From: Alkalispirochaeta sp.
GTDB taxonomy: Bacteria; Spirochaetota; Spirochaetia; DSM-27196; Alkalispirochaetaceae
Assembly: GCA_965601925.1 (NCBI GenBank)
Contig: OZ271854.1
Coordinates: forward strand, 3,360,001 to 3,424,000
Direction of reading: 5' to 3'
DNA length: 64,000 nt
The first letter of the stretch is position 1. Every line of letters begins with the position of its first letter. Positions 2,021-63,575 of the stretch are shown one piece after another. The position numbers and the translations under genes were made by a program. Under the pieces are notes generated by a model that saw only the letters and a program-made list of their open reading frames with translations, was not told where the DNA came from and did no database searches.

Positions 2021-3255
2021 TGGATTATTTTGTCGAGCAGGCTGCAACGGATCAGGAGGTCCAGGCGATCATCCGGAGGAAGTACGGCGATCGCGCGCGT
2101 ATTCTTGCTCGAAAAGAGATACACACCGGCGGTATTCTCGGACTGTTTCGAAAGCGGGCGGTAGAGGTCACCGGTTACTGCAGCCACGCACCCCAAACCC
2201 GCGTGCCGGGACGGGGATCGATGGTGGAGGAGCGCCGCAAAATACTCGAAACGGTACGTCAAGGCGCACCCGCTTCACGCGCTCCCTCGAGCCGCGAGGC
2301 CGCGCCGGTCGTCGCCGCCGAACCGCGGGCGGACAAGGTCGAGAGCGGCATCGGCCTCGATGTGGTGCTCTCGGAGCTGCGCTCCCTCAAGGAGCATATG
2401 GGGCACGGCGGCCCGGGGGCGTCACCCGGCGACCACGAGACGATCGTTCGGATTCGGGATATTCTGGAGGAGAACGACTTTTCCCCCGCATATATTCGCG
2501 ATGTGATAGACCGATTACGGAGCGAATGCTCGGTGGAGGATCTTGAAAACGCCGCGGAGATCGACGAGCGCGTCGTACGGTGGATCGCCGCTTCGATTCA
2601 CGTCTATCCGTGGCAGGAGAGAGCGCGACGTCCCCACGTCTTTGTACTCGTCGGACCGACCGGCGTCGGCAAGACGACGACGATTGCGAAGCTCTCGGCG
2701 ATGTACGGCGCGGTCGCGGACCCCTCCTACGACGTGCGTATTCTCACCATCGACAGCTACCGAATCGGTGCACTGCAGCAGATCGAGAAGTACGGTGAAA
2801 TCATGAACATTCCGGTCCACGCCGTGGAGACGGCCACCGAGATGCGTAAGCTCCTCGATCTTAATCGGGAGGCCGACTTTGTCTTCGTGGACACGATCGG
2901 TAAGAGTCCCAACGATCTCACGAAGCTGGCGGAGGTAAACCAACTCATACGGAGCGCCGGAGGAGAGGTGCACTTGGCGGTCAGTGCTACAACCAAGCGG
3001 GGCGATATCGGAGAGATTCTGCGCCAGTTCGAGCCGTTCAACTATCAAGCGGTGGTCGTCACCAAGCTCGACGAGACCGCCACGGTGGGCGGGATTATCA
3101 GCGCCCTCCACGAAAAACAAAAGTCCGTGAGTTTTATTACCGATGGTCAAAGCGTGCCACAGGATATTGAACGTGCCCGGGTCGAAACGCTTATTACCCG
3201 TTTGCGCGATCTCCCCGTTCACCGGTGGGAGAGAGAAGCGAGCACGAAGGAGTAA
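2017..3255 (+). CDS. flhF: Flagellar SRP-family GTPase FlhF
   Basis: GPTGVGKTTT P-loop, DSYRIGA, DTIG, TKLDET, GQSVPQDI; 4-bp overlap with flhA. Confidence 0.95.
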   Translation: MMDYFVEQAATDQEVQAIIRRKYGDRARILARKEIHTGGILGLFRKRAVEVTGYCSHAPQTRVPGRGSMVEERRKILETVRQGAPASRAPSSREAAPVVAAEPRADKVESGIGLDVVLSELRSLKEHMGHGGPGASPGDHETIVRIRDILEENDFSPAYIRDVIDRLRSECSVEDLENAAEIDERVVRWIAASIHVYPWQERARRPHVFVLVGPTGVGKTTTIAKLSAMYGAVADPSYDVRILTIDSYRIGALQQIEKYGEIMNIPVHAVETATEMRKLLDLNREADFVFVDTIGKSPNDLTKLAEVNQLIRSAGGEVHLAVSATTKRGDIGEILRQFEPFNYQAVVVTKLDETATVGGIISALHEKQKSVSFITDGQSVPQDIERARVETLITRLRDLPVHRWEREASTKE

Positions 3256-3258
3256 TTC

Positions 3259-4128
3259 ATGACGGATCAGGCAGAAACTCTCCGTGAGATCATGCGACAA
3301 CGGGGACGCGAGTCCGACGACGCGAGAAAGACCCGAATCATAACGATTGCCAGCGGCAAGGGCGGTGTCGGCAAGACGAACATCGCAACCAACCTGTCTT
3401 TAGCCTACGCCGCGATGGGACAAAAGGTCGTTCTGATGGATGCCGACCTCGGGCTTGCGAACGTCAACGTCGTCTTGGGTATCATACCCAAGTACAACCT
3501 GTATCACGTCATTCGGAAGCAGAAGCAAATGCGCGATATTCTCATGGACACCGACTACGGCATCCAGATCGTAGCCGGCGCCTCGGGATTTGCCAAGATA
3601 GCCAATCTCACCGAGGATGAACGGCAGAGTTTCATTGAGGAGCTTCAGCAGCTTTCGCACGCCGACGTCATCATCATCGACGCCGGTGCGGGTGTCGGGA
3701 ACAACGTACTCGCCTTCGTCGCCGCCGCCGACGAGGCGATCATCGTCACGACGCCGGAGCCGACGGCGATCACCGACGCGTACGGAATCATCAAGATCAT
3801 CGCGACGGAGGTCGACAACCTCAACCTCGGCCTCAAGCTCGTGGTCAATCGCGTAAAGTCGGTGACCGAGGGCAAGAAGGTGGCCGAGCGTGTGATCAAT
3901 ATCGCCGGACAGTTTCTCAATCTCAAGATCGACTATCTCGGATACGTATATGACGATCAGTCCGTACAGCAGGCGATCATCAAACAGAAGCCGTTCCTGC
4001 TGATGGACCCGCGGAGCAAGGCGAGCACGTGCGTGCAACAGATCGCCGGACGCCTGGAAAGGGTCGAGTATCGAGAAGGAGGGGGAGTTGGACAATTTCT
4101 TAAGCGCCTGTTCGGCCGATTACAGTAA
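3259..4128 (+). CDS. flhG: MinD/ParA-family flagellar ATPase FlhG (FleN/YlxH)
   Basis: MTDQAETLR N-terminus, SGKGGVGKT, DADLGLAN, TTPEPTAITDAY. Confidence 0.95.
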   Translation: MTDQAETLREIMRQRGRESDDARKTRIITIASGKGGVGKTNIATNLSLAYAAMGQKVVLMDADLGLANVNVVLGIIPKYNLYHVIRKQKQMRDILMDTDYGIQIVAGASGFAKIANLTEDERQSFIEELQQLSHADVIIIDAGAGVGNNVLAFVAAADEAIIVTTPEPTAITDAYGIIKIIATEVDNLNLGLKLVVNRVKSVTEGKKVAERVINIAGQFLNLKIDYLGYVYDDQSVQQAIIKQKPFLLMDPRSKASTCVQQIAGRLERVEYREGGGVGQFLKRLFGRLQ

Positions 4129-4129
4129 C

Positions 4130-4159
4130 TTGACGGTAATTTTGTATATACCTTACTCT
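4130..4159 (+). promoter_or_regulatory. Putative internal sigma70 promoter upstream of the flgV-like/fliA genes
   Basis: TTGACG (4130-4135)-N18-TACTCT (4154-4159) in an AT-rich gap. Confidence 0.45.
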
Positions 4160-4171
4160 GTAATTTGTTAG

Positions 4172-4894
4172 ATGGAACGATATGTGAAGATCGCCGTCCC
4201 TGCGGGTGTCGGCGCGCTCGTACTTTCTGTACTGGTCGGACTGATCGCCGGAGTATCGTTCGGTACCGTCGTGGTACGCGCCGTTGCATGGGCCGCTCTG
4301 TTTGCCGGTGCCGCGGTCGGGCTTGCGGCTCTCGTCGAACGTTTTATCCCGGAACTCGTGGACGGTGACGCGTCGCCGGGATCGGAGGCCGCATCGCGCT
4401 CCTCCGCAGGAGCGCGCGTCAATATCGTCGTGGAAGACGATGACACGGACGCGGGTGTCGAACGAGAGCCCGCGGCGACCGGAGCCCGCGCCACGGTTCT
4501 GCCGGTCGGAGACGACGAGAGCGACGCCGAACGGCAGGCGGGACCCGCGTCGGCGGAGTTGGTCGACGCGGTTGCAGAGCAGCTCGCCGACGACGAAGAG
4601 GCGGTGATGAGCCAGGCGATCGAAGAGGAGAGGAACGGCGCAGCGGTCGAAGTAGACGACGGCGCGATCGACGAGATGCCCGATATCGGCGCCTTTGCCG
4701 GTTCGTTCGTTTCTTCGGATTACGAACAGACCGAAGGATCGCCGGACGGGGAGATGGATGATTCCGTCTCGCTACCGGACCCCACACGAACCGACGGTTC
4801 GCGGTCAGGGGGGAGCGGCGAGGTAAATGCCGGCAATGATCCGGCTACGATCGCGCGCGCATTGCAGACGATGTTAAAACGTGACGGCGGTTAG
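4172..4894 (+). CDS. flgV: FlgV-like flagellar membrane protein (2 TM, acidic disordered region, C-terminal helix)
   Basis: Two N-terminal hydrophobic helices, long D/E-rich linker, C-terminal DPATIARALQTMLKRD; position between flhG and fliA. Name rests on architecture and synteny. Confidence 0.6.
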   Translation: MERYVKIAVPAGVGALVLSVLVGLIAGVSFGTVVVRAVAWAALFAGAAVGLAALVERFIPELVDGDASPGSEAASRSSAGARVNIVVEDDDTDAGVEREPAATGARATVLPVGDDESDAERQAGPASAELVDAVAEQLADDEEAVMSQAIEEERNGAAVEVDDGAIDEMPDIGAFAGSFVSSDYEQTEGSPDGEMDDSVSLPDPTRTDGSRSGGSGEVNAGNDPATIARALQTMLKRDGG

Positions 4895-4921
4895 GCCGTT
4901 CGCAGAGCACTGGGGAGGGGA

Positions 4922-5710
4922 ATGAGCGACCGCGTTCTGACCGAGAAGACAGAAGAAGAACTCTGGAGGGCTTACCGCAAGACCGGTGACGACGCCATCC
5001 GGAATCGTCTCGTGAAACAGTACCTTCCACTCGTGAAGTACGTCGCCGGCAAACTCGCCGTCGGCATGCCTCAGAATGTGGAGTTCGACGATTTGGTGAG
5101 CTACGGTGTTATCGGTCTGTTCGACGCGATCGACAAGTTCGATCCCGACAAGCACGTCAAGTTCAAGACCTACGCGGTGACGCGCGTGCGCGGTTCGATC
5201 TTTGACCAGTTACGGCAGCTCGACTGGGTTCCGCGATCGATCAGGCAGAAGACGCGTGAGTTGGAAGACGCGGTTCGGCGTCTGGAGGCGCAACTCGGCC
5301 GATCGGCGACCGACCGCGAGATCGCTCGCGAGCTGGGTATCTCGGAGCGCGATTTCGAGAAACTCATACTCAAGATAAGCGGTACGACGGTGCTCTCCCT
5401 CAACGATGTGTGGTACCCGGGGGACGACAACGACCGGATGTCCATCGGCGACAGCATCGAAAGTCCTCAAAATCGAAACCCCGACGCCATTGTAGAAAAG
5501 CAGGAGATTAAGCGCGTCATCGTTGAGGCGATCAACGATCTTCCCGATAAAGAAAAGAAGGTCCTCGTACTGTACTATTACGAAGATCTTACCTTGAAAG
5601 AGATCGGCGCCGTCCTGGGAGTGACCGAGTCCAGGATTTCTCAGCTACACACCAAGGCGATTATGCGACTCCGTGGACGGCTGACCAGTGTGAAGCGAGG
5701 TATCATGTAA
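4922..5710 (+). CDS. fliA: Flagellar sigma factor sigma28 (FliA/WhiG)
   Basis: [61 protein letters not shown]. Confidence 0.96.
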
Positions 5711-5712
5711 CC

Positions 5713-7683
5713 ATGGTAACGATGGAGCAACTCCAGGCGTTCATGCGCAAAGCGGCTCAGGACGACAACACGAAGAAGTATGTCAACGTGAGCGGCGATA
5801 GTCTGGAAGATGCGCTCCGCGAGGCGGCCGTCGAACTCGGACTTCCCATAAAGAAGATCGAATATGAGATCTTGGAACGCGGCTCGTCGGGGATGCTCGG
5901 CATGGGGAAGCGGCCGTTTCTCCTGGTCGCCTATCCCGCACAGGTACAAGCCCAGGGAATCGTCGGCGACGACTCTTTTGATATGGATTTCGGTTTCGAT
6001 TCCGAGGACACCGCCGACGCCAACGGACAAGCCTTTGTCCGTCTCACTCCCGAAGGAATCCTGCTCAAAGTGACGCCGCCGGAGGGCGACGGGGAGCGTG
6101 TGACCGAGCGTCAGGCGATGCACGTCATCACACATCGCACCAGAGACAAGGTAGACACCTCGCTGATCGCCAAGGTCGTGAAGCGCGCCGACGCCGAGTG
6201 GGTACGGATCGGTGAGTTCATGTACAACCCTGCCAACGACGCATACGTCTCCTGCGACATCGTCGAGGCCGAAATGAAGGCGATCGTGACGTTGACCGCC
6301 CCCGGAACGGGCGGCGCCGATCCGTCGGTGGATGCGATACGCGGCGTACTGGAGGCGAGCGGCATCGTTCACGGCATCAAGGAAGATGCTCTGTCGGCGT
6401 TGGAGGACAATCCGATCTATCGCGAGCCGTTGGTTGTGGCGGAAGGTACGAAACCGCGTCACGGCGCCGATGCCCGCATGGTGTTCAACTTCAAGACCGA
6501 CTCGCGGGAGATTCACCTCCAGCAGACCAAGGACGGAAAGGTCGACTTCAAGGAACTGAACAGAATCGAGAACGTCGTCGCGGGACAGGTACTCGCTCGC
6601 AAGGTTCAACCGGAGGCCGGGGAGCCGGGCGAGACGGTAACGGGACGCATGATTCCTGCAAAAGACGGCAAAGACATACCCCCGCCCTTGGGAGACAACA
6701 CGCGACTGTCGGACGACGGGCGCAGTATTCTGGCCGAGATTAACGGTCTGGTGAAGCTCGTAAACGGCAAGGTAACCGTCGAGCCGATTTATCTGGTGGA
6801 CGGCGACGTCAACATAAAAGAGGGCAACATCCACTTTCTTGGTACCGTCATCGTCAAGGGCAGTGTCGATGACGGTTTCAGCGTGAGCGCCGCCGGCGAC
6901 ATCGAGGTCATGGGGAGTGTCGGCAGAGGCGTGCTGGAGGCCGAAGGCGACATCATCGTACACCAAGGTATCGCGGGTAAGGGCGACGGTACGGTGACCG
7001 CCGGCGGGTCGATTTGGTCCAAGTTCATCGAAAACGGTAACGCCCAGGCCGGCGAGATGGTCGTCGTCTCCGACGGTATCATCAACAGTTCCGTCTTTGC
7101 CGACAAGCGCATCATTTGCCGAGGCCGTAGAGCGTCGATCGTAGGGGGACACATTCGAGCCGCTGAAGAGGTCGACGCGAAGACGCTCGGATCGGTCGCC
7201 GGTATGGAGACGATCGTTGAGGTGGGATACGATCCCAAGAGCCGGGAGCGATTGCTCGAACTCGAGGCGTCGGACGGCGAGCTGGCCAAAAACCTGGAAG
7301 AGCTCTCGCTCAATATGTCGACGATCGAAAACATGCGCAAGAATAAGCGCAAGATCAGCCCGGAGAAGATCAAGCACTACGCCGTTATGAAGATGCAGCG
7401 CGAGAAGGTGCTCAAGAGTCGCCAGAAGATCGGACGGGATATCAAGGCGATCCAGGATTATCTCGACGAGTTGAAGACCCACGGGAGGATCAGCGTTTCC
7501 GGTACCGTCTATCCCGGTGTCAAAGTGGCGATCAAGGACGCCCAGTTGCCGGTGCGTCACGAGGCCAGGGCGGTGACCTACGTCGCCGAGGCGGGTATGG
7601 TAAAAGTCACTCGTTACGAGGAGAGCCAGGCGGATATTTCGATTCGCAAGAAGGGGGGCAGGGATGTCGATACAGCCGATTGA
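5713..7683 (+). CDS. fapA: FapA/DUF342 family protein with N-terminal Jag_N-like domain
   Basis: N-terminal EILERGSSGMLGMGKRP; GKVDFKEL; GNIHFLGTVIVKGSV beta-helix repeats; C-terminal coiled coil and GTVYPGVKVAI. Confidence 0.85.
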   Translation: MVTMEQLQAFMRKAAQDDNTKKYVNVSGDSLEDALREAAVELGLPIKKIEYEILERGSSGMLGMGKRPFLLVAYPAQVQAQGIVGDDSFDMDFGFDSEDTADANGQAFVRLTPEGILLKVTPPEGDGERVTERQAMHVITHRTRDKVDTSLIAKVVKRADAEWVRIGEFMYNPANDAYVSCDIVEAEMKAIVTLTAPGTGGADPSVDAIRGVLEASGIVHGIKEDALSALEDNPIYREPLVVAEGTKPRHGADARMVFNFKTDSREIHLQQTKDGKVDFKELNRIENVVAGQVLARKVQPEAGEPGETVTGRMIPAKDGKDIPPPLGDNTRLSDDGRSILAEINGLVKLVNGKVTVEPIYLVDGDVNIKEGNIHFLGTVIVKGSVDDGFSVSAAGDIEVMGSVGRGVLEAEGDIIVHQGIAGKGDGTVTAGGSIWSKFIENGNAQAGEMVVVSDGIINSSVFADKRIICRGRRASIVGGHIRAAEEVDAKTLGSVAGMETIVEVGYDPKSRERLLELEASDGELAKNLEELSLNMSTIENMRKNKRKISPEKIKHYAVMKMQREKVLKSRQKIGRDIKAIQDYLDELKTHGRISVSGTVYPGVKVAIKDAQLPVRHEARAVTYVAEAGMVKVTRYEESQADISIRKKGGRDVDTAD

Positions 7684-7987
7684 TCTGCAAACTCTCTTTG
7701 TCCGGTTGAGTCAAGTCGGGCGCGAGCAAGCGGCGATCAAACAGTCGGTTGCACAGAACCAACTCGTTACGGGAAATGAAATTGCAGAGCGGTCCCAAGA
7801 GGTGGGCCACACGGTGGAGGAGACCAAAGAGGTTTCCGAAGGACCGGAAACGGTGCACGAGGACGGATCGCCGAACGAACAACCTCACGGTGAGCAGCAC
7901 CGTGAGTCGGATTCGAAGCCGGAGGAGCATGCCGATGAAGCCTTTCGCGATCCGGATCTGGGACAGAATATCGATCTCACGGGATAG
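7664..7987 (+). CDS. Conserved flagellar-operon hypothetical protein
   Basis: MSIQPIDLQ...DPDLGQNIDL ends typical of small proteins following fapA; overlaps fapA. Confidence 0.75.
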   Translation: MSIQPIDLQTLFVRLSQVGREQAAIKQSVAQNQLVTGNEIAERSQEVGHTVEETKEVSEGPETVHEDGSPNEQPHGEQHRESDSKPEEHADEAFRDPDLGQNIDLTG

Positions 7988-7990
7988 GGC

Positions 7991-8572
7991 ATGACGTTCG
8001 GCCTGTATCTCCTTCTCAACCTCGCTCTATTGAGTATCCTCGTCGTATGGTTGAGACGGCTCGTGGTACGTCGCCTCGCTCCTGAGCGCATCCTGCAGGA
8101 TTTGTACGGTGAAATTCAAACCCTCGTCGCCGAGGTCAATCAGACGAGCGACCACAACGTATCCATCATAGAGGACCGGATCTCGTCGCTCCGTGAGCTG
8201 GTGCATAACGCGGATCGGCAAATTGAAGAGTTGGAGGGGCTTCTGCAACGAGTCACCGAAACGGTACCGGAGGAGGTCTATTCTCTTCCGTTGCCGACGA
8301 CGCGGCACGAGGAATCAGCGTCGACCGACGATTCCGGAAGGTCTGCCGATGAGACGCTATCCGCCGTAGGGGGCGGCGTGGGGGCGATGGACGACCAGCG
8401 GCGGAACGCTTCCGACGATCCACCCAGCGCAGCGGAGAAGGACCGCCGAACGAGAGTGGCGGAGCTCTACGAGCAGGGACTTTCCACCGAGCTGATCTCG
8501 TCCCACACCGGCGTCGCGATCGGTGAGGTCGAGTTGATTATCTCTCTGATACAAGGGCGGGCGCGACGATGA
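7991..8572 (+). CDS. Membrane-anchored coiled-coil protein with C-terminal HTH-like domain (SwrB/DUF6115-like)
   Basis: N-terminal TM, coiled coil, C-terminal LYEQGLSTELISSHTGVAIGEVELII. Confidence 0.65.
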   Translation: MTFGLYLLLNLALLSILVVWLRRLVVRRLAPERILQDLYGEIQTLVAEVNQTSDHNVSIIEDRISSLRELVHNADRQIEELEGLLQRVTETVPEEVYSLPLPTTRHEESASTDDSGRSADETLSAVGGGVGAMDDQRRNASDDPPSAAEKDRRTRVAELYEQGLSTELISSHTGVAIGEVELIISLIQGRARR

Positions 8573-10233
8573 CGGTCGGCATCGATCTGGGAACGACCAA
8601 TTCGTTGATCGCCTTTCTCGATGGGGATTCCCCGCGGTTGATACCGAACCGGCGCGGCAAGACAATTACACCGTCGGTCATCGGAGTTGATGCCGCGGGC
8701 GGGCTCTTGGTGGGTGAGGCGGCTCGCAATCAAGCCGTCGGTGCCGTCGATAGTACCGCGTATCACGTGAAGCGGCTGATGGGACGGCGAACCACCGTCG
8801 CACTGGGTGGTATCGGTCGGAGCCCTGAGGAGCTCAGCGCCGCCATACTGCGAGACTTACGCGCCCAGGCGTGCGCCTTTCTCGCCGGCGATCAGCACGA
8901 GGCGGTCGTTACCGTTCCGGCGCATTTCGACGAGCGGCAGCGCCTATCGACGACCGAGGCGGCATTTCTTGCCGGGTTTGACGCCGTGAGTCTCCTTAAC
9001 GAGCCCACGGCGGCCGCCTTGCCGTACGCCGCCCGCGACCGCAACCATGAACGGCTGGTCGTCTTCGACTTCGGAGGCGGTACCCTCGATGTGACCTGTC
9101 TGGAGCGCACGGGGCGTGAGTTTACCGTACGCTCGACCACCGGCGACGGTGAGCTCGGCGGCACTGATATCGATCATATCATCTGCGAGCGTCTCGCGGT
9201 TGAGTTTCGCGATCGCACGGGGAACGATCCGATGAACGATCCCCGACTACGCTACGTGATGTTCCAACTTGCCGAGCGGGCAAAGATCGATCTGTCGGAA
9301 ATGGAGGAGACGACCGTGAGCATGCCGTTCATCGGCGGCGGTCGGCAGGCGGTGCACCTGAACGTGAGGGTGACACGCGACGAGCTCGATGAGGCGATCG
9401 GCCCCTTGGTTGCGCGCGCTCGCGCCGTCGTCGAGGACGCGCTGGAGTCGGCGGGCTATCGCCGCGGCGGGTTCGACCGGTTGATCCTATCGGGCGGCAG
9501 CAGCCGGCTACCGGTGATACGAACGATGCTCCGTTCACACTACGACGCCCCTATCGCCGATCGGATAAACCCCGAAGAGGTCGTAGCCGTCGGCGCGGTC
9601 ATGTACGGCGAGAGCCGGAGGAGCGGCGCGTTTGCACTTCGTGAGGCGCTGTCGAGTACCCTCTCGGTCGAACTTGCCGACGGGAGCTGCGTGCCGATTC
9701 TTCGTAAGAATCAGACCGTTCCGACGCAGCAGACGCGTATCTTTACTACCGTCGCCGAGGATCAACAGGAGGCGGAAGTCCACCTCCTACAAGGCGATCA
9801 TCTCGACGCCAGCAGCAACCAGACACTCGGACGGTTCGTCCTCCGTGACATACAACGCGCTCCGCAAGGGGCCGCGCGTATTGTGGTGACCGTGTCGGTG
9901 AATGAGGAGGGACTCGTCAGTGTGCGTGCCGGTGACCGCGATACCGGTGCGTCTCGCGAGCTCGTCACACGCGCGTTACCTAAGGCCGAACGGCGGGAGG
10001 TCGAGGGAGATCGCAGGTATTATGCCGAGTCGGTCTTGCGCAGAGCCGAAGGGTTGTGTCGAATCGCGACCGAGGCCCTCCGTAAAGAGGTGGAGCAGAT
10101 TCTGTCCTCCGTGCGCTCGCGCGACGACTCCGGTCTTCCCGAGGACACGGTGGTCGTACTGGAGACGCTTATTCAGGAAATCGTCACCTCTCGGACGACC
10201 GTACCGGAAAGGAGCCATCGTGCAGCGTCGTGA
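8569..10233 (+). CDS. Atypical Hsp70 (DnaK-like paralogue)
   Basis: GIDLGTTNS, TVPAHF, NEPTAAAL, DFGGGTLD, LSGGSSRLP, substrate-binding beta domain; divergent linker and short lid; ATGA overlap with upstream gene. Confidence 0.92.
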   Translation: MTVGIDLGTTNSLIAFLDGDSPRLIPNRRGKTITPSVIGVDAAGGLLVGEAARNQAVGAVDSTAYHVKRLMGRRTTVALGGIGRSPEELSAAILRDLRAQACAFLAGDQHEAVVTVPAHFDERQRLSTTEAAFLAGFDAVSLLNEPTAAALPYAARDRNHERLVVFDFGGGTLDVTCLERTGREFTVRSTTGDGELGGTDIDHIICERLAVEFRDRTGNDPMNDPRLRYVMFQLAERAKIDLSEMEETTVSMPFIGGGRQAVHLNVRVTRDELDEAIGPLVARARAVVEDALESAGYRRGGFDRLILSGGSSRLPVIRTMLRSHYDAPIADRINPEEVVAVGAVMYGESRRSGAFALREALSSTLSVELADGSCVPILRKNQTVPTQQTRIFTTVAEDQQEAEVHLLQGDHLDASSNQTLGRFVLRDIQRAPQGAARIVVTVSVNEEGLVSVRAGDRDTGASRELVTRALPKAERREVEGDRRYYAESVLRRAEGLCRIATEALRKEVEQILSSVRSRDDSGLPEDTVVVLETLIQEIVTSRTTVPERSHRAAS

Positions 10234-10867
10234 AGCGTTTCGGATACTCGGGCTTGATCCCGGCGCGCCCGTACAGACGGTAAAGGCCCGTTTTCGCGGC
10301 CTGGTTAAACGCGTGCATCCCGATGCGCGGCCGGCCGTGGGCCGCGCCGAGAGTATGGATGTCGGGACGATTACCGAGGCGTATCGTGTCATATCGCAGA
10401 CGTGGAGCGGGACACCTCGCTCGGCGCCCGACGGTCGGGAGCGGCGCGAAGCGGGAGCGGCGGGTAGGCGTGCGCCAAAGAGTACGCGTGTAGACCGGGG
10501 GAGTCGACTGTTCGATTTAGGGCGACTGGCGACGTCGGCGGCTCGTTCGGAGACGAGACGGTCGGCGCTCAGGGAACTCGGTCGCTCCGATATGTTCTCC
10601 GCGGTCGTCTACGTACAGCGCGCCTTATTCGATCCCGATCCGTCGGTGGCGTGCGAGGCCGCATCGATACTGCCGACGCTTCCCGGTATCGGTACCGAGA
10701 GGCTCCTCCTCGAGGTGTTCGATCGACTATCGGTAGCGCAGCGGCTGTGTGTACTGCGCACGATTCGGGACGCGTCGCTTCGAATGCCGCGCCTCGTTGC
10801 GTATGCTACGGCCGATTTGCATCCTCCCGTTCGAAGGCTTGCGGGAGATTTATACCGGTGGACGTGA
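10220..10867 (+). CDS. J-domain protein with C-terminal HEAT-like repeats
   Basis: GTG at 10220 after AAAGGAG; AFRILGL...ARFRGLVKRVHPD J-domain with intact HPD; ALFDPDPSVACEAA HEAT-like motif. Confidence 0.85.
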   Translation: MQRREAFRILGLDPGAPVQTVKARFRGLVKRVHPDARPAVGRAESMDVGTITEAYRVISQTWSGTPRSAPDGRERREAGAAGRRAPKSTRVDRGSRLFDLGRLATSAARSETRRSALRELGRSDMFSAVVYVQRALFDPDPSVACEAASILPTLPGIGTERLLLEVFDRLSVAQRLCVLRTIRDASLRMPRLVAYATADLHPPVRRLAGDLYRWT

Positions 10868-12531
10868 CCGAACCGTTGAAAAATAGACTCGCTCGGCTCG
10901 CTGAGACGGTAGAGCTTCATCTCTTGGAAGAATCGGATCCACCGTCGTCTTTGACGCCGGATATCGCCTCGGTCTTGGATGAGGTGCGTTTTCTCGGAGC
11001 CGACGACGTCGTCAATGTGCTCGAAGGTATTCGTCATCATCTCGAAGCGGATCCGCAATCGACGGACGATGAGTCGGATGAGCTTCTACCGCTCGTGTTT
11101 CGTCTCCGCGACCTTAGCGACGAGGCGGTCGAGATCGAAGAAGCCGCGACGGGCGAAAACGAGTATGTCGATCTCGATCTTCGTCCGGAGGTCGAAAGGG
11201 TTCTGATGCTCACCGAAGCGGACGAGCGATTGGTTAATGCCGGGGTCCAAAGCGGTGCGCGGATCTTTCTTATCGAGGTACGCGCGGAGACACGCGCTCT
11301 CGATGCGGTCCACGATGCGGTTGAGGCGCACTTTCGCGTCGTGCGGAGTCTTCGCCACGAGCAATCAGGTCGACTCACCTCCTTGGTCGTCGACACTACC
11401 GAGCCGGACGTGCGCCGGGCGCTCGAAGAGCGTCTCGATATCAAAGGGGTCGAAATTGCGGTACGCCCGGTGGACGGAGACGAGTTGCACCACCGGACGA
11501 TCGTCGCGTCCGGAGGGTATCGAGCGCTCCCGCGAATATCGGTCGCGGCGGACGCCGCAGCGCTGGAACGCATCTGGCTGTTTGCCGCGTTACTCGCGCC
11601 GAAGGTGGACGAAGCGGCTACCTCGGGATTGTGGAGCGACTTTCGTGCCGCCCTCGGTGAGGCGTTGACTATTGACGTTCCGACGCTTCTGGCGGATCTG
11701 CGAGAGCCGCTGGAGACGATGGCGCGCGCGAAGCATAGACCGGTACGTATTATCTTTTCCGGGGAGCCGCAACCGATCGGCGCGGAGATCGCCGAGAGTC
11801 TCCGCGAGACGGTCTTTGAGCTGTTGTCCAACGCAATTGCCCATGGAATCGAGACTGAAGCGGAGCGCGAGAGCGCCGGCAAACGAGCGATTGGAACGAT
11901 TCGGTGTATCGCCCAGTCTCGTCATCCCGGCCTCACGCTGAGGGTGCAGGACGACGGGCGCGGCGCCGACGAGACTGCGGTACGTCGGGCATTCTCCGGA
12001 CGTCGTCGCGGAGGACTCGCACGGGCGCGAAAGCTCGTTCGGGATCATCTGGGCGGGTGTATCGGCCTTCGTTCGAGCTCCCGCGGCACCACCGTGACCA
12101 TAGACCTACCGGCGGTCCGGGGAGTCTTTAGGGGATTGCCGTTTCGGAGAGGCGAAATCGACTTTGCGATTCCCGCCGCAATCACCGAAGCCGCGGAAGC
12201 GATCGTCGCGGAGCGAGTCGTTGTCGATGGGGCCGGCGGACGCTTTCTACGCTACCAACGGCGCGTCGTGCCGTTGGTCGAACCCCAACCGTCCGTCGCG
12301 CGGCAGGACGAGGGAGCGGAGGCGTCCGAAGCGCCGATCGGCCGCGACGACGATGGGCTCGACAATCGGCCGACCGCCGCGGTAGTGATACGTATCGGCG
12401 GGGCCCCGATCGCCCTGGCTGCCGACTACGTCGGAGACGAGACGGTGATGGTGTCTATGGAGGATGGAACGGTTTCTTTGCCGTCCGACCAAGGGCGCCG
12501 CCTCGCGGCGGTCTCGCTACGCGGGTTATAA
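10858..12531 (+). CDS. Degenerate CheA-like protein (probable pseudokinase)
   Basis: ELLSNAIAHGIETEAERESAGKRAIGTI and VQDDGRG (CheA P4), C-terminal CheW-like region; no HxxKG in the N-terminal helical domain; start codon inferred. Confidence 0.8.
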   Translation: MDVTEPLKNRLARLAETVELHLLEESDPPSSLTPDIASVLDEVRFLGADDVVNVLEGIRHHLEADPQSTDDESDELLPLVFRLRDLSDEAVEIEEAATGENEYVDLDLRPEVERVLMLTEADERLVNAGVQSGARIFLIEVRAETRALDAVHDAVEAHFRVVRSLRHEQSGRLTSLVVDTTEPDVRRALEERLDIKGVEIAVRPVDGDELHHRTIVASGGYRALPRISVAADAAALERIWLFAALLAPKVDEAATSGLWSDFRAALGEALTIDVPTLLADLREPLETMARAKHRPVRIIFSGEPQPIGAEIAESLRETVFELLSNAIAHGIETEAERESAGKRAIGTIRCIAQSRHPGLTLRVQDDGRGADETAVRRAFSGRRRGGLARARKLVRDHLGGCIGLRSSSRGTTVTIDLPAVRGVFRGLPFRRGEIDFAIPAAITEAAEAIVAERVVVDGAGGRFLRYQRRVVPLVEPQPSVARQDEGAEASEAPIGRDDDGLDNRPTAAVVIRIGGAPIALAADYVGDETVMVSMEDGTVSLPSDQGRRLAAVSLRGL

Positions 12532-12576
12532 AAAAATGGAGGCGGCTCGCCTGGACGTCGTTCGCGTGCCGCCTCC
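12530..12576 (-). terminator. Rho-independent terminator (minus strand)
   Basis: GGAGGCGGC (12538-12546)/GCCGCCTCC (12568-12576) stem followed by 7 T on the minus strand. Confidence 0.8.
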
Positions 12577-12602
12577 GTGAATGATCACATAATCACTCGT
12601 TG
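12530..12602 (-). ncRNA. Candidate ~70-nt sigma28-dependent small RNA
   Basis: Lies between a sigma28-like promoter (12609-12636) and the terminator; no ORF; two predicted hairpins. Confidence 0.45.
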
Positions 12603-12608
12603 CTTTTA

Positions 12609-12636
12609 TTATCGGAACGGCGCACAGTCGACTTGA
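12609..12636 (-). promoter_or_regulatory. Sigma28-like promoter
   Basis: TCAA-N16-TCCGATAA on the minus strand, versus consensus TAAA-N15/16-GCCGATAA. Confidence 0.55.
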
Positions 12637-12663
12637 TTCTTTATTGCCTCCTCCCGAATCCAC

Positions 12664-14535
12664 TCAGGCGCAATAGCGCAGCAGAAGCGCTCTATGGTAC
12701 TCCGCCGCTTCACTCAGGGCGGTATAGATCACGCGCGCCTGCGAAATACTCTCACGCGCGGTGGTGGGAACGCGTGTCGTCGCCTCTTCCAACGCCTCGG
12801 CGGCGAGAAATCCGGCGAGCTCACGATGGGTGAGGGAAGATAGGCGACGGTCGATCTCGTCGAGAGCACCGAGCGCCTTCCGTACTGTCGCCCCGTCGTT
12901 GTGCGCGTCGTCGGAGGAGAGCGCGTCGTCGGCGGCATCACACGTCGTCAAACCGTCGACGGCGATGGTGCGTATCTCGCATAGGCTCGCAGTCAGGCGC
13001 TCCACGAGGTCGTCCCCTCCGGTTCTCGTCCTCGCGGCTACGGCGGCAAGCGCCGAGCGCGCCGCCTCAAGCGCCTTTCCGGTCGCAGGAGTATCGGTAA
13101 GCCATTCTCGAGGACTTGTGTATGGAACGCCGCGAATTGCGCTGCTCTCCGGTGAGAATAGTACCGTCCGAATCTCCGGATGGCGCTGCGCCTGCTCCTC
13201 GAACCATCCGCGATAGACATCCATCCGTGCATCGCTCACTACCGGTTTGCCGGCGGCGGACGGCACGAACGCCGCCTCGGCACCGTGAAGGTACTTCCAC
13301 AGACCGTGTTCCGCGGGGCGTAGTCGTGCGGCGATGCGCTGTAGGCGGACTTCGAAAAATGAATCGCGGCAGTGCGTCTGGTAGCCGGGAAAGCCCAAAT
13401 CGACCCCGGCAAGGGCGATGTGCGTCGCGCCGAGGACGCGGGCGAGATCCCACGCCGATGTCGCTACCGAGCCACCGGCCCCCAACTTGAGAGTCCGTCC
13501 GACAAGGGCATCGAAAAACGAGCCCAACGGAAAGAGCGACGCGGAGACGAGGGTCGGGCCGGTCCACAACCGCAGTGTCCGAGGGTGGGTGGCGGGTTCG
13601 GCGACCAGAACCGTCGCGGCGCCGCGGACCGAGTCGAGGTGGCGGGTATTCCAATACTGCGGATCGGCGATGATCGCGATGTCGGCATCCAGACCCACAC
13701 GTTGCAATGCGGAAACCGCCGTATCGACCGCAATAACCAAAGCGTGACGAGTAAGGCTTGCGAGGTGCGGCAGCGTGGCATCCAGGGTGGGGCCCGCTCC
13801 GCATACGACCGCCGGGACTCCGGCGGCGATACCCGCCAATCGGTCGATATCGGGAATGACACCCCACCGGCGAATCGTATGCAGCGTGTTGCGCACCCAC
13901 AGTTTTCCGAACCGGCGGAGGGTGTTACGGTTCACGCGTCGTCGCTGCATATAGCGACGCAACTCGTCTCGAATGCGTTCAAAGCGTTCTTTTTGGGCCG
14001 CGGCGAGGCTCGCCAGTTCTGCGCATACCGGGTCGTCAATACCGAGGTCGCGCAGAATGGGCGCCAGCGTTCCGGGCAGCCACGCCGGAACGAGTCGATC
14101 GGGACCGTAAGCGCACCACCACGCCGCATTGCGATGGGCGAGGGCCGCGCTCAGAATCGCAGGCGACAGACAGATCACGACGATCGATCCGCCGAGATAT
14201 GACGACCCGCGCGCCTCGGCCAGCGCTTCGAGATGGTGGCCGAGGCCGAGGCCGATGATCACGACGCCGGCTCCCGCGTTGTCCGCCTTCTCCGCCTCGA
14301 CGACGAGCCCTGCGGCGATACGGTCGGCCTCTTTGCGCGGATCTATCGAGCTATGTATCCACCGTCCCGCGACGCGTAGGCTCGTATCTCCGGTGCGCGT
14401 GGGGCGGAGCTCGACGTGCAGACGCTCGTCGTCGTCGATCGCGGTGGCGTCGTTCAAGGCTGCGCGAATATCCTCGGCGAGGTGCGGCCGGCAGCGCATC
14501 AAAACGGAGAGATCGGTACTATGGGACCTCGTCAT
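12664..14535 (-). CDS. Motility-associated factor (Maf, MAF_flag10/DUF115) family glycosyltransferase
   Basis: IHSSIDPRKEA, IIGLGLGHHL, VVCGAGPTL, IAVDTA, GGSVATSAW, LAGVDLGF motifs. Confidence 0.8.
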   Translation of the reverse strand: MTRSHSTDLSVLMRCRPHLAEDIRAALNDATAIDDDERLHVELRPTRTGDTSLRVAGRWIHSSIDPRKEADRIAAGLVVEAEKADNAGAGVVIIGLGLGHHLEALAEARGSSYLGGSIVVICLSPAILSAALAHRNAAWWCAYGPDRLVPAWLPGTLAPILRDLGIDDPVCAELASLAAAQKERFERIRDELRRYMQRRRVNRNTLRRFGKLWVRNTLHTIRRWGVIPDIDRLAGIAAGVPAVVCGAGPTLDATLPHLASLTRHALVIAVDTAVSALQRVGLDADIAIIADPQYWNTRHLDSVRGAATVLVAEPATHPRTLRLWTGPTLVSASLFPLGSFFDALVGRTLKLGAGGSVATSAWDLARVLGATHIALAGVDLGFPGYQTHCRDSFFEVRLQRIAARLRPAEHGLWKYLHGAEAAFVPSAAGKPVVSDARMDVYRGWFEEQAQRHPEIRTVLFSPESSAIRGVPYTSPREWLTDTPATGKALEAARSALAAVAARTRTGGDDLVERLTASLCEIRTIAVDGLTTCDAADDALSSDDAHNDGATVRKALGALDEIDRRLSSLTHRELAGFLAAEALEEATTRVPTTARESISQARVIYTALSEAAEYHRALLLRYCA

Positions 14536-16403
14536 TCGAGTTCCAGCCGGATGTTCATGCCGTGTTGGAACACGGTTCCCGGTGGAGGGGTCTGTCGCAC
14601 GACCCAGCCGCTGCCCTCGATGAGGACGCGGACGTCTTCGCGTCCCAAGAGCGGTAACAGTGCGCGGATCGGCAGACCCGTATAGTCGGGAATCGTACCG
14701 TCGATCGGCGGGAGTTGCGGCTTGCGGGTAGTAATGGTCCCGGGGTGCGACACGACAATATCGGTATCGCGCGGTATGTCCCAGTACGGCACAAGGAATT
14801 CGATCAGCCGGTCGACTGCCGGTGCGGCGATTCGTCCGCCGTAAAAGCTCTCGCCGCGGGGATAGTCAATGACGACATACACGATTAACTGCGGATCCTC
14901 GGTCGGAAACAACGCCAGAGTCGAGGCGATGAAATGCTCCTCCGAGTACGTTCCCGTCTCGGGATCGAAGACCTCCGCCGTTCCCGTTTTCGCTGCGACC
15001 GAGATACCTTCGACTTGAATCCGCCGCCCCGTGCTGTTGGGGTCGGTCGCACGGTCCATGAGCGAGAGCATCGTCGAGGCGGTACCGGGGGACAGCACCT
15101 CGCGAATCGGATCGCGCTCGAGACGCCGCAGCACCTCTCCGGAGGGTGAGACGATGCGATCGATGATTTGCGGGCGAAGGAGTATGCCGCCGTTTGCGAG
15201 TGTCGTTGCGGCGGCGAATATCTGGATCGCCGTCGTGCCGATCTCCTGACCGATCGCCAAGGTCGGGCGGCTGCGCGTCGACCACTCCTCAGGCGGCGCC
15301 AATAGGCCGTTCTCCTCGCCGTTCAAGTCGACTCCGGTGCGCCGGCCGAAACCGAATTGTGTCAACATCGTGTAGAAGGCGCCGGAGTCCACCCGCTCGG
15401 ATGCGTAAGCCGCGCCGACATTGCTCGAGAACTTGATGATCTCTTCGGCGTCGACCCACCCGTAGTCGGCCAAGTCGGTGATAACGTATCCGCCGTCCTG
15501 TGACCGATATCCGCCCGAAGTATTGAAGCGATCGTCGGTATCGATGCCGCCGAGCTCAAGAAAACCGGCCACGGAGAACGCCTTGAATACGCTTCCGGGC
15601 TCGTATATCTGCGATATGATGCGGTTGCGCCGCTGTTCGTCCGAGTAGTTGCGAAAGTTGTTCGGATCGAACGAGGGTTGGCTGGACAACGCGAGGAGCG
15701 CGCCGGTCCGCGCCTCTCCGACGATGATCATGACCGAGTCGGCATCGTGTTCGTCCAGAAGATCCTGTGCGATTTGGTCGGCCTCGCTCTGTATCGCGAG
15801 ATCCAGAGTGAGAAAGATTTGGTTGCCCATCATGAGCGAGAGATCGTCCTCTCTACCGGTGGGCGGCGCCAACTCTCCGGAAAACATGTACTCGATACCC
15901 GAGAGCCCCACGTTATCTACACCGGTAAAGCCGATCACCGCGGCCGCGGCGTCGCGTTCGGGGTAGCTCCGACCGGTGTCGGGTTCCAGGCGTATGCCTT
16001 GCAGACGACCCTCGCTGCGTTCGATGCGAATGCGTTCGCTCTGGCTGGGCGTGATCGTACGCTCCACGATGAGAAAGCCGTTCGCCGCGGCGAGTCGGTC
16101 CGCGAGTTCATCCTCCGATAGGTCGAGAATCTCGGCCAGAGTCCGCGCGGTAGCCTCGATGTCCTCGATCTCCGGCCTCCACGCCGTTACCGTATCCAAG
16201 CGGGTCTGAATCGCCAGAATGCGTCCCCGACGATCCATGATAGGACCGCGTTCCACCTCACCGAGCGCCGCCGAGCGCGCGGCCACCGAACCGGGAAGCA
16301 TGATCGAGGCGTACCTGAGAATGACAAGCGCGGCCAAAGACGCCACGACGATTCCGACGATCGTGAGCCGCGGCGACCGTTTGTCCGTGCTATTATGATC
16401 CAA
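14532..16403 (-). CDS. Class B penicillin-binding protein (FtsI/SpoVD-like) with PASTA-like C-terminus
   Basis: RGPIMDRRG, RSYP, EPGSVFK (SxxK), SSN, KTGT; TTG start at 16403 after GGAGG. Confidence 0.92.
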   Translation of the reverse strand: MDHNSTDKRSPRLTIVGIVVASLAALVILRYASIMLPGSVAARSAALGEVERGPIMDRRGRILAIQTRLDTVTAWRPEIEDIEATARTLAEILDLSEDELADRLAAANGFLIVERTITPSQSERIRIERSEGRLQGIRLEPDTGRSYPERDAAAAVIGFTGVDNVGLSGIEYMFSGELAPPTGREDDLSLMMGNQIFLTLDLAIQSEADQIAQDLLDEHDADSVMIIVGEARTGALLALSSQPSFDPNNFRNYSDEQRRNRIISQIYEPGSVFKAFSVAGFLELGGIDTDDRFNTSGGYRSQDGGYVITDLADYGWVDAEEIIKFSSNVGAAYASERVDSGAFYTMLTQFGFGRRTGVDLNGEENGLLAPPEEWSTRSRPTLAIGQEIGTTAIQIFAAATTLANGGILLRPQIIDRIVSPSGEVLRRLERDPIREVLSPGTASTMLSLMDRATDPNSTGRRIQVEGISVAAKTGTAEVFDPETGTYSEEHFIASTLALFPTEDPQLIVYVVIDYPRGESFYGGRIAAPAVDRLIEFLVPYWDIPRDTDIVVSHPGTITTRKPQLPPIDGTIPDYTGLPIRALLPLLGREDVRVLIEGSGWVVRQTPPPGTVFQHGMNIRLELE

Positions 16404-16749
16404 CGAAAAAAACCCTCCCGCGGATAAGCGATGCCGGTACCGCTCCAAAGTGTCTCGAATCGATGGAGTGGATCGCGTTGTCGCCACGTACAAAATATCG
16501 GTCTCGATCGATCGTTCGCTCAAGTCTTTTGATCAAAAGTGTTCCATTCTTCGGGTGATGAAACACGACGATATCCCCGGGACGCGGAGATCGTAGAAGA
16601 AAAGCCAGCCGATTAACGAGAACGACGCGCCCCTCCGGAAGGGTAGGCTCCATGCTGTGTCCGTCTACGGCGTACAACGCCACCGTCGCGTGCAGCGTCA
16701 CGCCGAACATCAAAACGGTCAACGCAACCGTGAGTACCGGAAAACGCAC
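16393..16749 (-). CDS. Minimal signal peptidase I (S26 family)
   Basis: GHSMEPTL (Ser), LIKR (Lys), GDNAIHSIDSRHFG; one N-terminal TM; 118 aa. Confidence 0.88.
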   Translation of the reverse strand: MRFPVLTVALTVLMFGVTLHATVALYAVDGHSMEPTLPEGRVVLVNRLAFLLRSPRPGDIVVFHHPKNGTLLIKRLERTIDRDRYFVRGDNAIHSIDSRHFGAVPASLIRGRVFFVGS

Positions 16750-16795
16750 ACGGAACTATAATACGCTCCATTTTTCTTGTCGATACTGCTAATGT

Positions 16796-18058
16796 ATGGT
16801 CAGTGTGATCGAGCATCAGAAGGTCGAACGACGTAAGCGTGTTCAGCGCAAACTCAAAGTCACTACGAGCGGCCCCTCCTCTCGACGACGCGTATCCGGT
16901 ATACGGCTGGTCGTATCACGCGCGCTCTCGAAGCGGATATCCGGCGGGCGTCACCCTTCGACAGTCTCGCGGACGATGCGCCCATCGACCACAGGTGTTA
17001 CGTCCGTCGTCCTTCGGCTCGCCCGTGCCGTAAAGCGACGCGCAGTCGAAGCGCTGGGACGAGGAGCCAAGCGCGTTGCTCTCCGTGGCGCCGGCATGCT
17101 CATGTTTGACGAGCGCGACGTGCCGCTCCACGGCGCCGCCCTCGCCTTCGCACTGATCGCCAATATGGTTCTCGTCTCCATGAACATCGATCGTGTGCTG
17201 CTCTCCGGAGCGGTGGCGACCGTTACGCTGCCGCCTCAGGGAGAGTTGATCGTCCGCTCGTCCTTGACGCCCCAACGGGACGAGTTTGCCGTTATCGGCG
17301 AGGTTGCCGGCGTCGATCCGTCGCGCTTCGCCGCGTTGGAGGTCGCCTCCTATACCGTGCAAGCCGACGATACGCTGGGAGAGATTGCGCTCCGGTACAA
17401 CCTCGAACTCGATACGCTTATCAGCTTTAACCAGATTGAGGACGTGCGGCGACTGCAGGTCGGCGATGTGTATCAGATTCCCAATCGCGACGGATTGCTC
17501 TACACCGTAAAGCGTGGCGACAGTGTCTCTTCGATCGCCTCGGAACACGGCACGACGGTAAACGAGATTCTCGACGTCAACGACCTTCCGACGCGCATGA
17601 TTACCGCCGGACAGGTACTCTTCGTGCCCGGTGCGCGGCTCAACTCGACCGAACTGCGAATCATCCTGGGCGAGTTGTTTGCCTGGCCGACGCGCGGCAG
17701 ATTCACCAGCGGTTTCGGTATGCGGGCCGATCCGTTCACCGGCCTGCCGCGATTTCACAACGGCATCGACCTCGCCAACCGCGTCGGCACGCCCATCCGG
17801 GCCGCCGCGTCGGGGCGGGTCGTGCACGTCGAGAGCCAAATCGGTAACTATGGGCGCTTCGTCATCGTGCGCCATCCCGACGGATTTCAGACGCTGTACG
17901 CGCATCTGAATGATTTCTCGGTACGTACCGGACAGTACGTAGAAAGGGGACAAACTGTGGGAACGATGGGGAATACGGGACGGAGCACCGGCCCGCATTT
18001 GCACTTCTCGGTGATTCACAACGGTACATTTGTAAACCCGTTGCGTTATCTACATTGA
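16796..18058 (+). CDS. LysM-containing M23 family peptidoglycan endopeptidase
   Basis: Two LysM repeats (YTVQADDTL, YTVKRGDSV), HNGID and GRSTGPHLHF; start uncertain. Confidence 0.92.
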   Translation: MVSVIEHQKVERRKRVQRKLKVTTSGPSSRRRVSGIRLVVSRALSKRISGGRHPSTVSRTMRPSTTGVTSVVLRLARAVKRRAVEALGRGAKRVALRGAGMLMFDERDVPLHGAALAFALIANMVLVSMNIDRVLLSGAVATVTLPPQGELIVRSSLTPQRDEFAVIGEVAGVDPSRFAALEVASYTVQADDTLGEIALRYNLELDTLISFNQIEDVRRLQVGDVYQIPNRDGLLYTVKRGDSVSSIASEHGTTVNEILDVNDLPTRMITAGQVLFVPGARLNSTELRIILGELFAWPTRGRFTSGFGMRADPFTGLPRFHNGIDLANRVGTPIRAAASGRVVHVESQIGNYGRFVIVRHPDGFQTLYAHLNDFSVRTGQYVERGQTVGTMGNTGRSTGPHLHFSVIHNGTFVNPLRYLH

Positions 18059-63569: not shown

Positions 63570-63575
63570 GGTACG

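Follow-up and report, generated by a model that had tools for sequence, protein, structure and literature searches.

The flagellar gene run of an Alkalispirochaeta sp. (assembly GCA_965601925.1) ends in three genes that encode a specialized Hsp70, a class C J-domain protein with HEAT repeats (J/HEAT) and a relative of the chemotaxis kinase CheA. We analyzed the 64,000-nucleotide stretch of contig OZ271854.1 between positions 3,360,001 and 3,424,000, referred to here as the window and numbered from its first base. The three genes lie on the + strand of the window at 8569–10233 (Hsp70, 554 amino acids), 10220–10867 (J/HEAT, 215 amino acids) and 10858–12531 (CheA-like, 557 amino acids), and represent a real, conserved and apparently undescribed module. 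In our preferred reading, to which we give an even chance of being correct, the locus consists of two add-ons: a motility-dedicated, non-housekeeping Hsp70–J/HEAT pair and a separate, non-catalytic, CheY-binding relative of CheA. The observed basis for this reading is the gene order, the gene overlaps, conserved residues, tree position, purifying selection and independent gain and loss. A role of the pair in motility is likely on the strength of its gene context. Papers are cited below by PubMed Central identifier.

Co-occurrence of the three genes

The three reading frames and their overlaps are as described in an initial annotation of this DNA made from its letters. The stop codon of the upstream DUF6115 gene and the start codon of the Hsp70 gene share the bases ATGA (8569–8572), the Hsp70 and J genes overlap at 10220–10233, and the J and CheA-like genes overlap at 10858–10867. 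An AGGAG ribosome-binding site for the J gene (10210–10214, + strand) lies within the end of the Hsp70 coding sequence, 5 nt before the GTG start. With starts chosen by rule, the Hsp70 and J genes overlap at 32 of 35 loci and the J and CheA-like genes at 22 of 29.

Searching the window's order with a J/HEAT profile at E 1e-25 gave matches in 57 of 84 genomes, but missed a divergent true copy in G058; absences were therefore taken from reading the loci instead. In a 401-genome sample of the phylum, 11 among the 150 matches listed spanned both domains, with 243 weaker matches beyond them. The locus survey covered 87 genomes of the order, with 4 unread, 13 cut by contig ends and 70 readable. All three genes stand in order at 46 of the 70 readable loci (the window included, and one with frameshifts). 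At 18 others the CheA-like gene directly follows the DUF6115 gene, and there is no Hsp70 or J gene at the locus. The remaining loci comprise three with a decayed pair before the CheA-like gene, one with a split CheA-like remnant, one with a J gene and no CheA-like gene (G003) and one with none of the three. The CheA-only state occurs in at least five separate places on a tree of fapA, which requires eight changes for the Hsp70/J pair and three for the CheA-like gene (with G030, where the gene is split, scored as lacking it). The Hsp70 and J genes are lost or decayed jointly, with 18 loci lacking both and three at which both are damaged or the Hsp70 is cut.

Outside the window's order, Hsp70 and J/HEAT genes follow the DUF6115 gene (and fapA, where the contig reaches that far) with no CheA-like gene in two genomes of family f14 and three genomes of other classes; G441, also outside the order, has J/HEAT and CheA-like genes after a cut Hsp70. 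In a metagenome scan with a Synergistota-labelled Hsp70, none of the 80 loci had a HEAT-type J neighbor or a flagellar run. On the locus counts inside and outside the order, the Hsp70 and J/HEAT genes go together as one unit, and the CheA-like gene is a later arrival beside them that can be separated from them.

The initial annotation had proposed a dedicated motility chaperone system with the CheA-like protein as its client or adaptor, and had suggested a neighborhood survey across the phylum as a check. The survey bears out the association of the Hsp70 with J/HEAT across the order and in other classes, and a non-housekeeping Hsp70 paired with J/HEAT does stand at the end of the flagellar operon. 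The CheA-like protein does not survive as an obligatory component, client or adaptor, since 18 genomes keep it without the pair and five outside the order have the pair without it. An obligatory three-part machine was rejected because the pair and the CheA-like gene are gained and lost separately.

That the three proteins nevertheless work as one machine, in which the CheA-like protein is bound by the HEAT repeats as a client or adaptor of the Hsp70/J pair, is unlikely in our judgment. All 46 loci of the order that carry an intact-looking pair and are readable throughout also have the CheA-like gene, the J and CheA-like genes overlap at most loci as noted above, and the deletion in G474 spared the HEAT part, in frame, ahead of an intact CheA-like gene. 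Such nesting is, however, also expected by chance for a rarely lost gene. The CheA-only genomes and their scatter on the fapA tree weigh against one machine, as do G003 and the genomes outside the order, and no relocated Hsp70 paralog of this type was found in the four CheA-only genomes checked (completeness 85–95%). Moreover, in about five of six independent pairs of genomes that differ in Hsp70/J, the CheA-like status is the same. A complex prediction for J/HEAT and the CheA-like protein scored 0.00 in two runs and was not used as evidence.

Two broken copies of the module have unusual structures. In G474 (L255:6146–6670), an in-frame deletion has left ∼45 residues from the start of the Hsp70 fused to the HEAT repeats of the J protein. 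Decay could account for this, as could a fault in the assembly or selection to keep the HEAT domain. In G023 (L210:8249–8818), the Hsp70 is cut to a 190-residue substrate-binding part, the J/HEAT and CheA-like genes are intact, and the housekeeping dnaK–dnaJ genes lie directly before fapA in the assembly.

The Hsp70 is distinct from housekeeping DnaK

The window Hsp70 matches the Pfam HSP70 family with an E-value of 8.7e-111, but scores below the NCBIfam cut-offs for DnaK (398 versus 822 and 402 versus 648 bits) and HscA (327 versus 708 bits). The genome (5.05 Mb) has one other Hsp70, in a grpE–dnaK–dnaJ cluster near 4.556 Mb that is 1.2 Mb from the trio; its single grpE adjoins this housekeeping dnaK, and the initial annotation was right that none stands at the flagellar locus.

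In trees from quick and FastTree runs, the flagellar-operon Hsp70s stand apart from all canonical DnaKs. Those of the window's order, family f14 and Borrelia fall on one side of a branch with support of 100. A clade with the spirochete housekeeping DnaKs was rejected (approximately unbiased test, p-AU 1.1e-5), which answers the phylogenetic question raised by the initial annotation: the window Hsp70 is not a housekeeping DnaK. A single clade of all flagellar-operon Hsp70s, including those of other classes, was neither demonstrated nor rejected (p-AU 0.52). When named genomes were scanned with the Hsp70 alignment, 79 of 80 hits were general DnaKs, which served as an outgroup only. A duplicated housekeeping gene was rejected on the score below the DnaK cut-off, the tree position and the lack of grpE or dnaJ alongside. 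The HscA–HscB system offers a parallel, in that one operon encodes an Hsp70 and its class C J protein for a dedicated process, but HscA groups with DnaK in the tree and the window Hsp70 does not. HscA identity was likewise rejected: the score is below the cut-off, the N-terminal extension is absent, the GrpE loop is kept and there are no isc genes at the locus.

Membership in the Hsp70 superfamily is clear from the actin-like ATPase domain with its D8, K70, E171 and T199 equivalents and from the beta-sandwich substrate domain; the initial annotation had likewise described the ATPase motifs as kept. In an alignment of 34 orthologs referenced to E. coli DnaK, HscA and HscC (DnaK numbering), D8, K70, E171, P143, R151, P419 and Q442 are present in all 34 and T199 in 33. 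The G001 ortholog (L026:8055–9614) has Ser in place of T199 and a 28-residue deletion in lobe I, forms the longest branch in the first tree and is probably ATPase-impaired.

The interdomain linker is divergent, as had been noted, although the motif given for it was one residue off: DVLLLD (388–393) of E. coli DnaK aligns with AFALRE (9628–9645, + strand), not FALREA. The L392 position is polar in all 30 sequences of the Hsp70 alignment. The arch residues M404 and A429 are changed to A/S/E/D and V/I, respectively. The K55–E267 salt bridge is mostly kept across the orthologs and R56 is replaced by Asn. The GrpE loop, which has 15 residues in DnaK, 6 in HscA and 9 in HscC, has 13–16 in 34 of 34 orthologs. 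Beyond the last beta strand the 34 orthologs have another 85–102 residues versus 136 in DnaK, consistent with the short lid described initially. The predicted structure (mean predicted local distance difference test score, pLDDT, 89; predicted template-modelling score 0.88) has a lid of three helices and is closest to structures of DnaK in the ATP state. These Hsp70s differ at several J-domain contact positions of DnaK, which we take to be R167 (contacting HPD), T215, E217, Q378 and D477. The changed residues may reflect co-evolution with a private J domain or a weaker coupling.

A rival explanation makes the pair a specialist of the HscC kind that acts in stress or on membrane proteins and merely rides the flagellar transcript. 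E. coli HscC belongs to the same 550–580-residue size class as the 554-residue window Hsp70, shares a lobe-I deletion and an adjacent class C J protein (PMC8215388), likewise has 87 residues after the beta domain and is placed together with the flagellar-operon Hsp70s on one side of a branch with support of 99. One relative of the pair (L174) lacks motility neighbors, and the pair is frequently lost in flagellated lineages. The lobe-I deletion is, however, also common to many non-proteobacterial DnaKs (PMC8215388), and the HscC placement comes from one HscC sequence on a long branch (1.7) that joins a non-flagellar pair with support of 86. The two Hsp70s are 29% identical, and three HscC hallmarks of PMC8215388 are lacking: the window Hsp70 keeps the GrpE loop, an insertion of 4–8 residues in loop L1,2 is found in 0 of 34 orthologs, and the partner is a soluble J/HEAT protein in a flagellar context, unlike the tail-anchored DjlB and DjlC. 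The position after DUF6115 is also kept across classes, and relocated copies lie near che genes in two of three cases. Taken together, these differences make an HscC-like role improbable.

Two of these relocated pairs have chemosensory neighbors: that in L169 lies in a cheD–cheR–cheB cluster with its own grpE, and that in L173 is ∼3 kb from cheR–cheD. The L169 cluster (1084–13381, G143) runs cheD–cheR–cheB, Hsp70, J/HEAT, grpE, a gene for a HEAT and cyclase protein, Hpt, REC–GGDEF–EAL and PilZ, a chaperone trio within a chemosensory and cyclic di-GMP cluster. Additional full-length DnaK paralogs near the housekeeping clade are present in L177, L179, L180 and L181 (G018, G044, G022 and G037), with no dnaJ in the stretch read. 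In L039:113–2736 (G033) and L041:2716–4659 (G025), a housekeeping dnaK, accompanied in L039 by grpE, is found no more than ∼2.4 kb downstream of the CheA-like gene; in L240 (G465) it also follows that gene.

The probable J-domain/HEAT partner

The probable partner protein consists of a J domain, a low-complexity linker and HEAT repeats. Pfam detects the DnaJ domain of the window protein at 1.5e-6 and HEAT_2 at 9e-4, the latter below the cut-off (orthologs score above it). The HPD motif (J residues 33–35; 10316–10324, + strand) is invariant in 34 of 34 aligned orthologs, helix II is basic and there is no G/F and zinc-finger architecture, placing the protein in class C. The zinc-finger motif CxxCxGxG is absent from 34 of 34 orthologs, so that the initial description of a J protein with HPD and HEAT-like repeats but no zinc region holds throughout. 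The ESM Atlas contains unnamed DnaJ/HEAT clusters of 74–138 members, with Spirochaetota the commonest phylum in the two that have taxa; a J/HEAT profile search of cluster representatives returned a mixture with long HEAT-repeat proteins, with no names or context.

A graded series of CheA-like proteins

The CheA-like protein contains a P1-like bundle that lacks the phospho-accepting His, a P2-like domain, a short P3, a P4 with deleted lid and F box, and a P5 without the GDG hairpin. In the window protein Pfam detects only HATPase_c and no P2, whereas Hpt, P2 and HATPase are all found in orthologs outside the window's family. The predicted structure (pLDDT 80) matches CheA P3–P5 structures with an E-value of 8e-20, and the model and a fold search together recover the P1, P3, P4 and P5 folds. 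The orthologs separate from 15 canonical CheAs with support of 100. They resemble the CheA of the spirochete cheA–cheW–cheX–cheY type in the P1–P2–P3–P4–P5 layout and a similar P5 'EE.VV' motif, but form a separate, orphan family in which the P5 GDG hairpin is absent from all copies. No cheW or receptor genes were seen at the window's locus; at the relatives' loci, cheW was not searched for. Five CheA-type kinases are encoded elsewhere in the window's genome.

All 53 copies outside the window's family have the P1 phospho-His, and none of the 18 within it does; the degenerate P1 helix of the window protein (10951–10995, + strand) replaces the HSLKSEA motif of orthologs outside the family. Of the 18 family copies, 14 belong to the genus of the window and its closest sister and four to two other genera. 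In the 14 copies of the window's lineage, the N-box Asn (13), His (14) and the G1 Asp and Gly (14) are retained, the F box is gapped in all, the first two G2 glycines are not conserved and the last is kept; the ATP lid is 10–17 residues long in 13 of the 14 (30 in the other) versus 21–75 outside the family. The four copies from the other two genera (519–597 amino acids) have lost the N and G1 boxes as well. The term pseudo-CheA, used in the initial annotation, thus suits the window's family but not the orthologs elsewhere, which have intact kinase motifs. In one complete genome (G030, L206:5320–7214) the gene is split into a P1-like open reading frame that retains a His and a 503-residue frame with P2. 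A known CheA with a dead kinase domain is CheA3 of Rhodobacter (PMC10782961), which differs in retaining the P1 His.

Selection was measured by the Nei–Gojobori method as the ratio of nonsynonymous to synonymous substitution rates (dN/dS) in 11 genome pairs (10 for the CheA-like gene), several with dS above 1. The ratio is 0.05–0.09 for the Hsp70, 0.04–0.24 for the J gene, 0.02–0.09 for fapA and, for the CheA-like gene, 0.11–0.20 in four pseudokinase pairs and 0.08–0.11 in six intact pairs. Under purifying selection throughout, the CheA-like gene forms a natural gradation between copies with intact kinase motifs and complete pseudokinases. The broken or split copies in G023, G030, G039, G053 and G474 and the strongly divergent Hsp70 of G001 would be expected if the three genes were decaying relics, but this is scarcely credible given dN/dS values that never exceed 0.24 for any of the three genes in any pair, including the four pseudo-CheA pairs, full-length open frames in 18 of 18 aligned family copies of the CheA-like gene and confidently predicted Hsp70 and CheA-like folds.

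It is also conceivable, though quite unlikely, that the CheA-like protein of the window's lineage is not dead but acts as a GHKL-type ATPase or a non-histidine kinase. Besides the retained N-box and G1 residues, the sequence E321-x-x-x-N325 (11818–11832, + strand) has Glu in place of the His of the CheA HLLRN motif. This N-4 position is Glu in 14 of 14 copies of the lineage and in 0 of 53 outside the family (His in 44, Gln in 9). GHKL ATPases use a Glu at N-4 as their general base, and histidine kinases typically have another residue there (PMC3904827, PMC13614785). Within the lineage, P4 is conserved better than any other domain (43% versus 28% for P2). Against such activity, the F box is deleted, the first two G2 glycines are unconserved and the sister genera lost the N and G1 boxes yet kept the protein. 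The 14 copies are kin and the Glu has a single origin, the glycines of the lid have decayed, and Glu is also found there in some classes of histidine kinase, for Mg binding; the His-to-Glu change is therefore at present a lead toward GHKL-type chemistry.

Proposed mechanism

In the reading that we prefer, all three proteins would be made from the flhA–fliA–fapA transcript. The HEAT repeats would recognize a single client, a protein of the motor, the export gate or the chemosensory system, the HPD motif would trigger ATP hydrolysis in the window Hsp70, and the altered J-contact residues could insulate the pair from DnaK and DnaJ. The short lid would permit fast, J-directed binding and release, suited to assembly or remodelling and not to general refolding. 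Because the GrpE loop and one of the two cleft salt bridges remain, ADP release might proceed through housekeeping GrpE in trans or be partly spontaneous. The CheA-like protein would have been an orphan kinase in the ancestor of the order, with catalysis lost in the window's family and the protein kept for binding, most likely through P2 and probably holding CheY. P2 is the only Pfam domain still found in two strongly decayed CheA-like copies.

Several observations weigh against this scheme. The pair is absent from many spirochetes that have the flagellar operon. It is missing from the 18 CheA-only loci of the order, and all nine loci read in other families, treponeme-type ones among them, have neither the pair nor the CheA-like gene. 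The related pair in L174 adjoins a two-component system, with no motility gene seen there. The R167 position is Ser in the window Hsp70, and Arg is kept in only 3 of 11 close relatives. The Hsp70s of the Borrelia family have no J/HEAT neighbor and a lid of only 18–35 residues. For the CheA-like protein, the strong conservation of P4 is left unexplained by a pure CheY sink, and P2 escapes detection by Pfam in the window's own protein.

The Borrelia counterpart

All three Borrelia-family genomes examined have fapA, the DUF6115 gene and an Hsp70 of 485–500 amino acids, followed by lepB and a LysM peptidase gene, with no CheA-like gene at any of the three loci. The second Borrelia Hsp70 that the initial annotation placed at this locus is thereby substantiated. 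In B. burgdorferi the flgB superoperon extends from bb0294 to bb0264, its last gene, and bb0268 is co-transcribed with bb0272–bb0264 (PMC11607428); the accessible text and six supplements of that paper contain no mention of the Hsp70 or of the genes considered here. BB0264, annotated as dnaK-1 (277090–278565), has been disrupted by transposon and is dispensable in culture, and one bb0264 insertion clone, scored twice over time, gave positives at 7 of 15 sites on both occasions and was classed as intermediate in mouse infectivity (PMC3485029). We equate BB0264 with the Borrelia-family Hsp70s by synteny, size and position only. The syntenic Borrelia-family Hsp70s fall in the same clade as the window Hsp70 (support 100), and BB0264 shares the position at the end of a flagellar superoperon and is non-essential in culture, but differs in having no J/HEAT or CheA-like neighbor and almost no lid; the papers searched give no function for it.

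Borrelia also bears on a possible control by the pair over FliA, the flagellar sigma factor, comparable to that of DnaK and DnaJ over sigma-32. The fliA gene lies in the same operon submodule as the pair, and Borrelia, which is without sigma-28 (PMC11607428), is also without the J/HEAT gene and most of the lid. Yet Borrelia retains the Hsp70 despite having no sigma-28, and fliA is present at loci without the pair both in the window's order and in other families, which makes control of FliA very unlikely.

A more far-reaching scenario is, in our view, a long shot. The pair would be an ancient, flagellum-dedicated remodeller of the spirochetes, with Borrelia DnaK-1 as its lid-less remnant, and the orphan CheA of the window's lineage would have been turned by the His-to-Glu change from a histidine autokinase into a GHKL-type ATPase. 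This ATPase would receive its client, a motor protein or CheY, from the pair in the way that Hsp90 receives clients from Hsp70.

Precedents and implications

Specialized bacterial Hsp70/J pairs are known for Fe–S assembly and pilus-based motility, and none was found described for flagella in the literature searched. This search, with most subscription papers outside its scope, found no description of the pair or of the CheA-like family, and the accessible part of a J-protein census (PMC10410713) has no passage on HEAT-repeat, flagellar or spirochete J proteins. The cyanobacterial DnaK1/DnaJ1, needed for phototaxis (PMC13710413), and Myxococcus StkA (PMC4319316) are similar as non-essential Hsp70 paralogs that stand between a chemosensory pathway and a motility apparatus. 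They act on type IV pili or exopolysaccharide, not flagella, and the accessible descriptions include no J/HEAT partner, leaving an analogy only. Another is the haloarchaeal HEAT_PBS protein OE2401F, a HEAT-repeat protein in a motility gene region that is required for coupling chemotaxis to the motor (PMC2666748), but it has no J domain and serves an archaellum.

The family provides a testable context for BB0264, an uncharacterized gene in the flagellar superoperon of the Lyme-disease spirochete, and identifies the partner that it has lost. As the trio is present in cultured, non-pathogenic relatives, direct tests are possible. Grading from kinase to pseudokinase under constant purifying selection, the CheA-like series points to a non-catalytic role for CheA in spirochete motility, in which the motor bundles at the two cell ends have to be coordinated.

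Surrounding genes

The + strand run that ends with the trio at 12531 begins with flhA (5–2020) and continues with flhF, flhG, a conserved open reading frame assigned to flgV by position only (4172–4894), a sigma-28-type fliA named from position and domains (4922–5710), fapA (5713–7683), a conserved 107-residue frame (7664–7987) at the position called YjfB in PMC11607428 and assigned on position only, and the DUF6115 gene (7991–8572), which encodes a membrane and helix-turn-helix protein and is the fixed upstream neighbor of the module. Gaps in this run are at most 43 bases, and five junctions overlap. A terminator-like hairpin with a T run (12540–12552, − strand) faces a convergent maf-type gene at the end of the run. 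The exact sigma-28 consensus, in the form that we take it to have, is absent from the window, and a sigma-70 scan gave five sites versus 2.4 expected, none convincing. Annotated orthologs in Alkalispirochaeta and Spirochaeta africana are named by their sources merely as Hsp70 family, J-domain and ATP-binding proteins.

Downstream of the module (12664–18058) lie the maf-type gene and genes for a penicillin-binding protein, LepB and a LysM/M23 peptidase, an order kept across much of the window's order; lepB and LysM genes are found at the Borrelia-family loci as well. The far end of the window (63102–64000, − strand) contains the end of a CheA-type kinase without P5 (a 724-residue open frame in the genome), followed by a gene that is CheX-like by resemblance.

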